Shown here one piece after another: positions 39,939 to 43,045 of a stretch of DNA of 64,000 bases. The stretch comes from Vicugna vicugna (Eukaryota): the NCBI GenBank assembly GCA_013265495.1, contig MU058045.1:195241-259240 (forward strand), in the 5' to 3' direction. Under the pieces are notes generated by a model that was not told the DNA's origin, made no database searches, and saw nothing but the letters and a program-made list of their open reading frames with translations. Position 1 is the first letter of the stretch. The number at the start of each line of letters is the position of its first letter. The position numbers were made by a program, and so were the translations under genes.

Positions 39939-42900
39939 ATGGAGAAGCTGGAATCTCTGCGGGCTGCAGGCGGCCTTAACGGGGAATCTCCTGGAAACAA
40001 CAGAGTCGAGGCAGGCGCCGGGCTGCCCTCCGTAGTCATGTTGCACGGTTCTGGGCCCCCCATGCACTCCGGGGGAATCGTAACTCGCAGTCCTGAATCT
40101 GGCCAGCCCTCCGAGGGGACAGAAGTCCTCGGTTCCGGGCTCAGCCAGCACCCTGGGGAGGTTGCGGGCCACAGCCTTGGGTCTGGCACATACACGGCCA
40201 GAACCAGTGTATTCGGGACGTCCAACCTGGGGTTCGCGGGGCCTGGAATGTACAACTCGGAGGACATTCCGCTCTCCAGGTCAACTTGCATATACCCCGA
40301 CAAACTCTGTGAGGACCGGCCCCGGAGCATCCTAAAAAATAGCAGCTACGCTGTGATGTATAAATCCCCCAGGGCGGAGAGGTAAGGCGTCCAGGAGGAA
40401 GAGATTCCGCACTCTGGAGAAGGCGGAGTCACGAGGAAAGGGGCGGAGTCCCAAAAACTAGAAATGAGAGTAGGTGAAGTTAATTGGGTGGGAAATCGGA
40501 GGTTCCAAGCCTACGTGAAAGTAGCACCGGATAAACCCTGACTACGTAGTACGTGATTATCATCAGGTGTGACTCCATCCCCAGCCTCCTACACCTCTAT
40601 ATCTATAAGTACAAGAAAAAGTTTTCGAATGTTTAAAAGAATGAGAGAGGGCTGTGAGAAGGAGGTCACCAGAAGGTTTCATCCCCATTTTTTTGTATCC
40701 TTCCCTCACCCCAAGGAAAAAGTCTCAGCACTGGGATGAAATGAATATCCTGGCCACTTACCACCCTACCGACAAGGACTATGGATTTATGACGGTGGAT
40801 GAGCCTAGCACTCCCTACCACAGGTGCTGAGCCCTCAGCCCTAGCCCTTTGAGAGGAGTGGGGGAGGCCAAAAGGCCTTAGGGACTGGCTACTGCCTGCC
40901 GCCCCCTCTCAGGCACTACTTCCTGCCTCCTCTGCAGACTGCGGGGCAGCGATGAGGACCTGCTGGCTGGGACCTCCCACACAGTGACTCCTGAGGAACT
41001 AGCAGAGAGGTGAGTCTTACCAGAGATCAGTAGAAATCTGCTTCCTCCCTTCACCGTTGAACTGTGGGGTCTGAGCCAGCTCTGCTTTTTGGCCCCCAAA
41101 AAGGGAGGTACTGCAGTTCTTATCAGGACTCACCCAGGCCAAGGTTGGGGAGTCAGCCATGCCCATCCATTCTTCTCTCCCTTCCGTGCCCCCAACTAGT
41201 CTCCCTCCCCTTCAGGTTTGCAACAATGGAGAATTTCTGCCCCAAAATCCTCCTGTACGGTGATAACAGAAGCTCAGGGTCTTCGGACACCTTTTCCAAG
41301 ACACGTGAGATGAGGGATAGGGACTGACTGTAAAGGGGAGGTGGAGTGAACCTTCTTCGAGAGCCTGGCAGGAAAGCCAAACTCTGACACTGGCCCACAG
41401 AATCCAGTGATTTTGAAAAGCACCGCAAGGCACACTACAATGAAGGAAAGTTCCTCAAGCTTCAGAGAAACCTGCCCTTGGATAATAACAAGAACAGCAG
41501 TGTGGGTAGTGTCTGTGTGAGCAGTGGGGGTCGAGGTGTGGTGTTGGACCCAGAGCCCAGGCCTGCGGAGAGAGGAGGGGCAGGAGGCCTGACCAGAGGA
41601 GTCAAAGATGAGTTTGGCCTGGTGACCAGAAACGACATCTTGGAAGCCAAAGGTTAGCTATGGTTGGGCCCCAGGGACCCAAGGGAATTGTAATCCAGAA
41701 CATTCTCTGGTATAGTCTGTCTTCCTCAGTGAGCATCAGCCCAGGGTCCTGTTGCCTGAAAATAAGTCATGCTGGAGGGTGACCCTAGGGAAGACAGAGC
41801 AGCTGAGGTGGGGTACCCATCAGGATAGTCCCCAAGGAAGGCTGGCGGGGGAGGAGGAACAGAAAGCCCAAGAGAATCATGGGAGATGGAAAGGTCACTG
41901 ACATTTTCCTAAAATGGGAGGAGGTGATAGAAGTGAGAGGATAAACTGGGGCTTGAGTTTCTCCCAGTGCTGGGAGGGAGGAGCAGTCACGATGATACTG
42001 GTGGCCTATCTTCCCTAGGTAGCCATAAGACTCAGATTGATTTGAGTGACTCCTCAGATGCCCTTGCCTTCAGAAATCAGTCCCCAGCTTCAGCCACCAC
42101 TGTCGTGTTGGGGAAGGAGACAGATCTGCAACGCAAGGAGTATTACAGAAAAGAAAGATACCTGAGGTGCTCTCCCCAGCCTGAGCTTGAGGAGGACACG
42201 GAAGATGAGCAGCAGGCCAGTGAGAGCTGGGCTAGGGCAGTCTGGGGGCGGGAGGGCCTAGAACCAACAGACTTCTAGGTGCCCCAACCTTAGCCCCGTG
42301 ATGCTTCCAGGCTCCACAGGCTTGAACTGGGTGATTGAAGATCCCATCAGCACCGAAGTCCGTCTGCTGGACCACACCGGAAGCTCCTCAGAGGATCCTG
42401 AGGCCACGGAGAACTCCCTGAAGGTGACAGTGACACCATCGAAGCCTGGTGAGGGCACCAGGCCACTGTCTCACCGGACTTGGCAAGCTCCCATGCCCCC
42501 CACCCTGACTCCCCACCAGTGGATGGACCACAGGTGATGAGCAAGGCCCTAAACATCCTTGTGTGCCAGTCCACGTTGCATGGAAAGGACCCAGGGAGGC
42601 TCAGAGGGATTGGAACCCCCTCCAGCTTGGCACCACCGCTGCCCCCATGCCTCCTCCCTGATTCCTCTCTGCCACCCTCCCGGCTCCAGGTACTGCCCTG
42701 TCCTCCAAAGACAGTGGGTCCCGAGCAGTGACTGATTGGTGTCAGTGGCTGGCATCCAAGGGGCTGAACTGGCAAAGCACAGAAGTCTCAGAGAGGGAAC
42801 CTAGAAGCATCCCAAATTCCTCAAACCAGAGCCAGCACAGATGTGAGCCCCGGCAAGGTAGGGCAAGGGGCTGCCTGCACTGGCCAGGGAGAGAGAAGGG

Positions 42901-43045
42901 TAGGTTCTAGGGAGCCTGAGGGTCACATGGGCCAGATCTCACATCTGCTGCAAGAAAGCCACTAGCCAAACCCCTTCTCTCTCCAGATGAAACCCTGCGG
43001 CTTCGATGGACTCAGGAGGAGGAAACCAGACAATGGAAGATGTAG
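39939..43045 (+). CDS. Protein phosphatase 1 inhibitor-2 (IPP-2/PPP1R2) family paralog, predicted 9 exons, ~496 aa; probable ortholog of mouse 2810408A11Rik
   Basis: Exons 39939-40381, 40716-40823, 40938-41009, 41216-41304, 41401-41652, 42058-42219, 42311-42448, 42690-42857, 42987-43045 total 1491 nt, open. Motifs [58 protein letters not shown] 43109-43114. Exons 1-5 are strong; exons 7-9 are less certain. Confidence 0.85.

Follow-up and report, generated by a model that had tools for sequence, protein, structure and literature searches.

A spliced inhibitor-2 paralog upstream of ACAP1 in Vicugna vicugna, orthologous to mouse 2810408A11Rik

The locus and its gene model

We analyzed a 64,000-nt stretch of the Vicugna vicugna genome (MU058045.1), referred to here as the window, with all coordinates counted from its first letter. 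On the plus strand, between a Neuralized-repeat gene and an ACAP gene, the window holds an intron-containing gene that encodes a paralog of inhibitor-2, the regulator of protein phosphatase 1 (PP1) encoded by PPP1R2. This gene is a real, spliced, camelid ortholog of mouse 2810408A11Rik. Our overall reading, to which we assign a probability of roughly 0.7, is that it is an intact sister of PPP1R2 copied together with its neighbors, probably when the genome doubled in early vertebrates, and that its product, predicted to be disordered, probably acts as a PP1-binding regulator in male germ cells after meiosis.

The best gene model runs on the plus strand from an ATG at 39939 to a stop at 43045, with nine exons, GT-AG introns, and no internal stop (Table 1). 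Its product is 1530 nt and 509 amino acids long. The original prediction, made from the letters of the window, was correct in proposing nine phase-compatible exons in one open frame, with ~128 residues ahead of the SILK motif, while its length of 1491 nt (~496 amino acids) has to be revised. Because 356 distinct nine-exon splice paths terminate at 43045, the tail is not fixed by phase compatibility alone; only one of these paths gives 1491 nt, by way of an exon-6 acceptor at 42058, and both the RefSeq camelid models and the RNA contigs described below use 42019 instead. Nor is the gene hidden from annotation, as had been supposed: alpaca RefSeq entry XP_072796540.1 covers it and differs from the spliced product at 3 of 509 residues. 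The Trp-rich helix predicted in exon 8 is recognizable in marsupials and echidna, and no family match was found for it.

Table 1 Features of the inhibitor-2 paralog and its surroundings in the window.
Feature	Position	Strand	Remarks
Alternative first coding exon (RefSeq isoform X2)	38950..38981	+	Lacks SILK; P0268 reproduced from the window
Exon 1, coding	39939..40381	+	128-residue Gly/Ser/Pro-rich extension, then SILK motif (RSILK, 40323-40337)
Exon 2	40716..40823	+	108 nt, as long as PPP1R2 exon 2; KSQHW docking motif, PSTP with Thr180
Exon 3	40938..41009	+	72 nt; S188 in SDED, A194, invariant S197 and P202; donor seen in RNA contigs
Exon 4	41216..41304	+	89 nt; both joints in RNA contigs
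Exon 5	41401..41652	+	Phase 1-1; inhibitory helix, HYNE at 41433-41444, second half of helix diverged
Exon 6	42019..42219	+	Phase 1-1; putative degenerate second helix copy 42123-42170, acidic stretch 42183-42212
Exon 7	42311..42448	+	Alternative donor at 42533 shifts the frame
Exon 8	42690..42857	+	Trp-rich predicted helix 42734-42772
Exon 9, coding part	42987..43045	+	Runs to the stop
AATAAA	43109..43114	+	Candidate polyadenylation signal
ACAP1	43830..54523	+	Directly downstream; synteny anchor

Identity, orthologs, and expression

The whole protein matches the Pfam family IPP-2 (PF04979) with 108.4 bits against a gathering cut-off of 25, over profile positions 1-128 of 130, and exon 2 alone scores 62 bits, which bears out the predicted family membership. 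In a search of the PDB, the sole match was inhibitor-2 in 2O8A (E 6e-28). Among the matches listed, named close relatives come from all four placental superorders, opossum, koala, wombat, platypus, and echidna, and several of them are labeled 2810408A11Rik. The protein is closer to mouse 2810408A11Rik than to PPP1R2 and falls in one clade with it, in line with the orthology first suggested from the position of the gene, and the core of the mouse protein (NP_081695.2) is identical at 92 of 139 residues.

The mouse gene has been studied at the level of expression and localization (PMC3597327, Bi et al. 2012). The primers used in that work encode peptides 555 nt apart in NP_081695.2, compared with a published product of 554 bp; the IPP-2 domain is placed at 150-277 there and at 152-268 here; and the computed mass of NP_081695.2, 46.7 kDa, is near the ~47 kDa on a blot that the authors give as 'data not shown'. 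Its mRNA was found only in testis, and the protein from round spermatids onward, in the acrosome and post-nuclear region of sperm (PMC3597327). Germline expression, which the original prediction had raised as a possibility, is thus already published for mouse, and its description of 2810408A11Rik as uncharacterized was too strong: expression and localization are in print, biochemistry is not, and the study includes no phosphatase assay.

Across primates, database models differ in length. The models of lemurs, galago, colugo, and treeshrew are long. Those of chimpanzee and gorilla stop at exon 3 or earlier, and those of capuchins lack SILK and are in addition either cut short or without exon 5. 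For human there is a single record, a partial Celera model with a non-homologous exon-4 segment. No Old World monkey is among the matches listed. Judged from database models, the gene appears to have decayed in simians, apes included, and the suggested loss in some lineages holds at that level for apes and capuchins. The supplements of PMC7555810, PMC6886504 (7 of 9 files), and PMC2864566 yielded no entry for 2810408A11Rik as a human gene loss.

RNA evidence

Assembled RNA contigs from 4 of 19 matching runs were aligned to 40900-43200. These contigs come from a close relative that differs at a few letters per 100, and they carry no levels, strand, or ends. Spliced joints were expected from the prediction, and six of the eight joints in the model are present: 41009>41216 (1 of 4 runs), 41304>41401 (2 of 4), 41652>42019 from exon 5 to the longer exon-6 acceptor (2 of 4), 42219>42311 (3 of 4), 42448>42690 from the in-frame exon-7 donor (1 of 4), and 42857>42987 (4 of 4). 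The joint from exon 5 to 42058 occurs in 0 of 4 runs. Introns 1 and 2 rest on the RefSeq models and on Logan contig protein P0129, which spans joints 1-3. All eight runs on record as RNA are labeled reproductive system and come from two studies; they do not amount to a tissue survey. Within the coding exons, RNA and window differ at eight positions, three synonymous and five non-synonymous, which is too few for a ratio of non-synonymous to synonymous rates.

The contigs also reveal other splice forms. The frame-shifting exon-7 donor (joint 42533>42690) yields a predicted product of 477 amino acids with a stop at 42735. Exons 4 and 5 are skipped in one run, where the product would end at 208 amino acids. 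Intron 4 is covered by contigs in two of the four runs, and 6 of 10 Logan-only paralog proteins examined read into it and have no helix in frame. A joint that skips exon 5 alone, 41304>42019, is seen in 0 of 4 runs, two of which do not cover the region.

At the 3′ end, the AATAAA expected after the open frame is present, yet in all four runs the contigs continue past it, extending 318-851 nt beyond 43200 in the direction of ACAP1. The phase-1 donors of the gene could be joined in frame with ACAP1 through acceptors at 43768 and 43807, and fused models of the two genes are on record from two species of Pteropus and from sheep (P0017, P0018, P0022). The RNA and fused models in 43109-43883 may represent read-through or a gene-calling artifact.

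At the 5′ end, a CpG-rich stretch forms a divergent promoter (38783-38981), in which isoform X2 starts at a distance of 167 nt from the Neuralized-repeat start codon. Mouse isoforms 4 and 6, like RefSeq isoform X2, lack SILK. A perfect cAMP response element palindrome, the sole one in the window, is found at 39601..39608 on the plus strand, 331 nt before the ATG. Such an element would fit CREM-driven expression in spermatids, and it is only a lead, its presence not being beyond chance (1 in the window versus 0.32 expected, with at least one in 27 of 100 shuffles).

Origin by duplication of a gene block

The genome contains three IPP-2 loci: the present gene, PPP1R2 on contig C12388, and one intronless copy, with no third intron-containing copy. 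The exons of PPP1R2 measure 122, 108, 78, 98, 168, and 47 nt and are separated by introns of phases 2, 2, 2, 1, and 1. Introns 1-5 of the present gene, beginning with the phase-2 intron that ends exon 1, have the same phases at aligned positions, so that the proposed comparison of intron positions gives a match for 5 of 5 PPP1R2 introns. The intronless copy (L020, G000:C9622:3746949-3747779, minus strand) has an intact 206-amino-acid frame with PSTA instead of PSTP, and is probably the retrogene PPP1R2C/P9, a name that we assume. Most mammalian PPP1R2 relatives are retrocopies, according to the accessible part of PMC3840573, and one such intronless copy exists here, which makes a processed retrocopy or pseudogene of PPP1R2 a natural candidate for the present gene as well. 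Eight introns (five of them common with PPP1R2), spliced RNA, and the open frame refute this explanation, and we give it practically no weight.

The two genes also share their surroundings. The present gene ends 785 nt upstream of ACAP1, and PPP1R2 is directly upstream of another ACAP gene, across a 26-kb gap that was not searched for genes; in both cases the two genes are on the same strand. Contigs C1307 and C12388 each carry genes of the ACAP, DLG, TNK, and SENP3/5 families, accounting for two of the three contigs matched by DLG, two of two for TNK, and two of two for SENP3/5, and the order DLG (-), inhibitor-2 gene (+), ACAP (+) is identical on both. The eIF5A paralog is on another contig and adds no pair, leaving 4 of 5 tested neighbor families paired. 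Searches assign these genes to families; the individual genes are presumably ACAP2, DLG1/4, TNK1/2, SENP3/5, and, for the Neuralized-repeat gene, NEURL4. Within the window, Pfam gives the order eIF5A (+), G-protein pathway suppressor (-), Neuralized repeats (-), the present gene (+), ACAP (+), KCTD11/21 (+), and TMEM95 (+) over 22251-58914, which places the gene between NEURL4 and ACAP1 as predicted and which we take to agree with human 17p13.1. Five common introns and a shared gene block support the proposal of an old DNA-level duplicate, and the gene is almost certainly a block duplicate of PPP1R2.

In the passages of the literature accessible to us, ACAP1 is located at human 17p13.1 and ACAP2 at 3q29, both arising from vertebrate duplications (PMC2542466), and human chromosomes 17, 3, and 1 carry a whole-genome-duplication paralogon (PMC5543598); coverage of this paralogon was not found in the accessible part of PMC6585022. 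We consider it probable that the present gene and PPP1R2 also separated in the early vertebrate genome doublings, a date that rests on synteny and not on the tree. Synonymous divergence of the present gene from PPP1R2 is similar to that of the ACAP pair, with 7 of 22 four-fold sites identical in the former, 53 of 134 in the latter, and 19 of 38 between the intronless copy and PPP1R2. An unrooted tree splits 17 paralogs, among them an inhibitor-2-like protein of axolotl, from 16 canonical proteins (fish, coelacanth, amphibian, and mammalian) with support of 100/99. On whether the duplication preceded the divergence of fish and tetrapods, the observations are this tree, the axolotl candidate, and no fish ortholog among the matches listed.

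Several results argue against so early a date. The tree has long branches in addition to being unrooted. In approximately unbiased (AU) tests of constrained trees, a mammal-only duplication was formally unrejected, at a borderline p-AU of 0.053, as was the grouping of all paralogs with mammalian inhibitor-2 (p-AU 0.44). Fish, reptile, and bird orthologs are absent from the best 120 of 137 and the best 120 of 651 matches. Both the unrejected trees and the lack of a fish ortholog would suit a DNA copy of PPP1R2 that arose in tetrapods or mammals and landed beside ACAP1. We nevertheless find a later origin of this kind improbable: the copy would have had to insert itself immediately upstream of the ACAP paralog, oriented the same way, and inside a block with DLG, TNK, and SENP3/5 pairs; synonymous sites are saturated; and a tree constrained to join the axolotl protein to salamander inhibitor-2 is rejected (p-AU 0.02).

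PP1-docking elements and their conservation

The SILK motif, KSQHW (the counterpart of KSQKW, the degenerate RVxF motif of inhibitor-2), the equivalent of inhibitor-2 Thr72/73, and the inhibitory helix all occur in the predicted order and at the predicted positions. Conservation of SILK, KSQHW, Thr180, and HYNE reaches the monotremes. In 34 aligned mammalian orthologs, echidna included, [SG]ILK is found in 30 (SILK, residues 130-133 here) and K-x-Q-[HR]-W in 32 (KSQHW, residues 150-154, within KKSQHW at 40717-40734). Thr180, encoded at 40810-40812 within a PxTP motif, and P181 are invariant in 34 of 34. The 12-residue helix stretch is encoded at 41412-41447, and HY-x-[ED] is present in 33 of 34 orthologs at the position of HYNE (residues 249-252), a motif required for binding of PPP1R2 to PP1 (PMC11561318, in its accessible part). 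The alignment contains 18 invariant columns, all within residues 158-250 of the inhibitor-2 core. Compared with the alpaca protein, the orthologs are on average 88% identical in SILK and exon 2, 82% in the exon-5 helix (helix 1), 72% in the motif in exon 6 (helix 2), and 52% in the N-terminal extension. The chain is predicted to be largely disordered, with AlphaFold2 giving four short helices and a low-confidence mean predicted local distance difference test score of 48.8 from an alignment of only 34 rows.

At 40975-40992, none of the 34 orthologs varies at S197 or P202, and T201 is almost invariant. The S-x-x-x-T-P spacing fits the consensus of a primed GSK3 site.

Within the core, three features weigh against a mode of action like that of inhibitor-2. 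The exact HYNE sequence is found in only 13 of 34 orthologs (HYDE in 14, HYSE in 4). The second half of the IDoHA helix (LNIKLARQL) is replaced; this half and the acidic stretch right after it are replaced in 12 of 12 paralog rows and kept in 11 of 11 canonical rows, and the acidic stretch of the present protein comes after helix 2 instead of helix 1. The CK2 serine of inhibitor-2 (Ser86/87) aligns to A194. The acidic SDED sequence predicted downstream of PSTP does exist (40948-40959, with S188 present in 25 of 34 orthologs), but it is not the CK2 site of inhibitor-2. Because PPP1R2P3 and PPP1R2P9 also lack the CK2 serine and still bind PP1 (PMC3840573, accessible part), its loss limits the claim that the protein works exactly like inhibitor-2 and does not limit homology.

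A fast-drifting, nearly dispensable testis gene, in which the PP1 motifs matter little now, is an unlikely explanation. The core does change faster than that of PPP1R2, which is identical to its baboon or rabbit counterpart at 141 of 155 residues, as compared with the 92 of 139 noted above for mouse; many products are frame-shifted or intron-retaining; and the ape and capuchin models are broken. Against drift, the open frame and the invariant core columns are kept across 34 mammals, and a mouse protein close to its computed mass was detected, on the blot not shown in PMC3597327.

A putative second helix in exon 6

The long C-terminal tail, described at first as novel, is not wholly so, for exon 6 encodes a motif that resembles the exon-5 helix and is followed by an acidic run. 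From sequence comparison, we take this motif to be a degenerate repeat of the inhibitory helix, the second in the protein. A helix-1 profile applied to 37 ortholog tails scored within the top 1% of 200 shuffles in 27, and the match was the exon-6 motif in 27 of 27. Comparison of helix 1 and helix 2 in hhalign, with the paralog's own helix-1 profile, gave P 1e-4. The copies in monotremes are plain (21.5 bits in platypus, 16.3 bits in echidna), the alpaca copy is weak by itself (8 of 200 shuffles reach its score), and marsupial gene models lack helix 2. At the HYNE position, helix 2 is substituted, most often to YYSK. A Pfam search of exon 6 alone returned no match at E up to 10, and a profile of the canonical helix matched mostly the acidic stretch and gave an hhalign P of only 0.003; the evidence for a repeat thus comes from the helix-1 profile of the paralog itself and from the sequences of monotremes.

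In the axolotl inhibitor-2-like protein (P0164/P0259), a stretch like the canonical second helix half is found ~25 residues after HYNE, and against the canonical profile it scores above all of 200 shuffles. This helix may have been split by an insertion.

Exon 5 and exon 6 each have phase 1-1, and the frame stays open when exon 5 is skipped. Helix 2 without helix 1 is found in 22 of 205 pattern-picked proteins, which are gene models only and of which ~12 of 205 are canonical inhibitor-2. A speculative scheme, which we think unlikely to be right as a whole, would make the tandem PP1 active-site helices a splicing switch. With exon 5 included, the HYNE helix would block PP1gamma2; with exon 5 left out, the exon-6 helix would occupy the groove without blocking it, and the whole-genome-duplication twin of inhibitor-2 would turn from an inhibitor into a sperm-head anchor, a control lost in apes and kept in most mammals.

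Proposed function

Judging by the motifs and the expression of the mouse ortholog, the most likely role of the protein is that of an inhibitor-2-like regulator of PP1gamma2 in spermatids. SILK and KSQHW would dock on PP1, likely PP1gamma2, which predominates among the PP1 forms of male germ cells (PMC9737803, accessible part). The HYNE helix encoded by exon 5 would cover the PP1 active site, phosphorylation of Thr180 would release PP1 as in inhibitor-2, and the added tails would set location. Products without the helix, from retention of intron 4 or skipping of exon 5, would bind weakly or not at all.

Beyond the sequence changes in the core, this role is opposed by the transcripts and by work on PPP1R2 itself. 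The frame-shifting exon-7 donor is used in 4 of 4 RNA runs and the in-frame donor in 1 of 4. The mouse study offers no assay of PP1 binding or inhibition, and a PP1 role is inferred from motifs and mouse expression. 'Inhibitor' may also be the wrong word, because inhibitor-2 in cells acts as a stimulator or as a hand-off factor that passes PP1 to adapters (PMC11561318; bioRxiv 10.64898/2026.03.15.711929; both in their accessible parts). For the same reason, the main rival is a protein of identical origin that serves as a targeting or hand-off subunit, holding PP1gamma2 and tying it through the added tail to the acrosome or post-nuclear region. We regard this as possible and rather less than even. 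The divergence of half the helix, the conserved tail motifs, the defined sperm-head sites of the mouse protein (PMC3597327), and the stimulation of PP1 holoenzymes in cells by PPP1R2 (PMC11561318, accessible part) favor it, whereas the exact HYNE in this protein and the conservation of helix 1 speak against it. No partner of the tail is known, and an Atlas search with residues 340-509 returned only IPP-2 clusters below 0.9, which are leads only.

Comparison with known systems

The gene and its testis expression in mouse were already known, and novelty is capped by the catalogued gene and the published expression. We found no account of the block origin, the second helix, or the simian decay in the accessible literature, and they may be recorded elsewhere. 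The work on the mouse ortholog (PMC3597327) does not cover a PP1 assay, motif analysis, origin, the second helix, or primate loss, and 2810408A11Rik is mentioned 0 times in the main text of a survey of the PPP1R2 family (PMC3840573).

The retrocopies PPP1R2P3 and PPP1R2P9/PPP1R2C belong to the same family and are likewise found in testis and sperm, but they are intronless and ~205 amino acids long (PMC3840573, accessible part). In the human chromosome 17/3/1 paralogon, known for p53/p63/p73 (PMC5543598) and for ACAP1/2/3 (PMC2542466), the ACAP1 block holds the present gene and the ACAP2 block holds PPP1R2, and this pair is not listed in the accessible passages of either source.

Sperm require PP1gamma2, whose control has been attributed to three regulators, inhibitor-2 among them (accessible parts of PMC9737803 and PMC3840573). 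A testis-only second gene for inhibitor-2 that mouse, livestock, and most mammals possess, and that seems to be broken in apes, is a candidate source of some of that activity. It would also be a reason why results from mouse sperm may not transfer to people.

The closest comparison is with PPP1R2 itself (PF04979, 2O8A). Both proteins have SILK, KSQxW, the PxTP threonine, and HYNE in this order, the present protein may, by a low-confidence prediction, be disordered like inhibitor-2, and both genes have the five introns and an ACAP gene downstream. In contrast, the present protein is 509 amino acids long rather than 206, with a core identical at 70 of 135 residues, its CK2 serine and second helix half are replaced, and its gene has an extra helix copy, three more exons, and an ortholog restricted to testis in mouse. 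With HYNE kept, half of the helix and the CK2 site changed, and a second helix added, the gene provides a natural variant for how inhibitor-2 acts.

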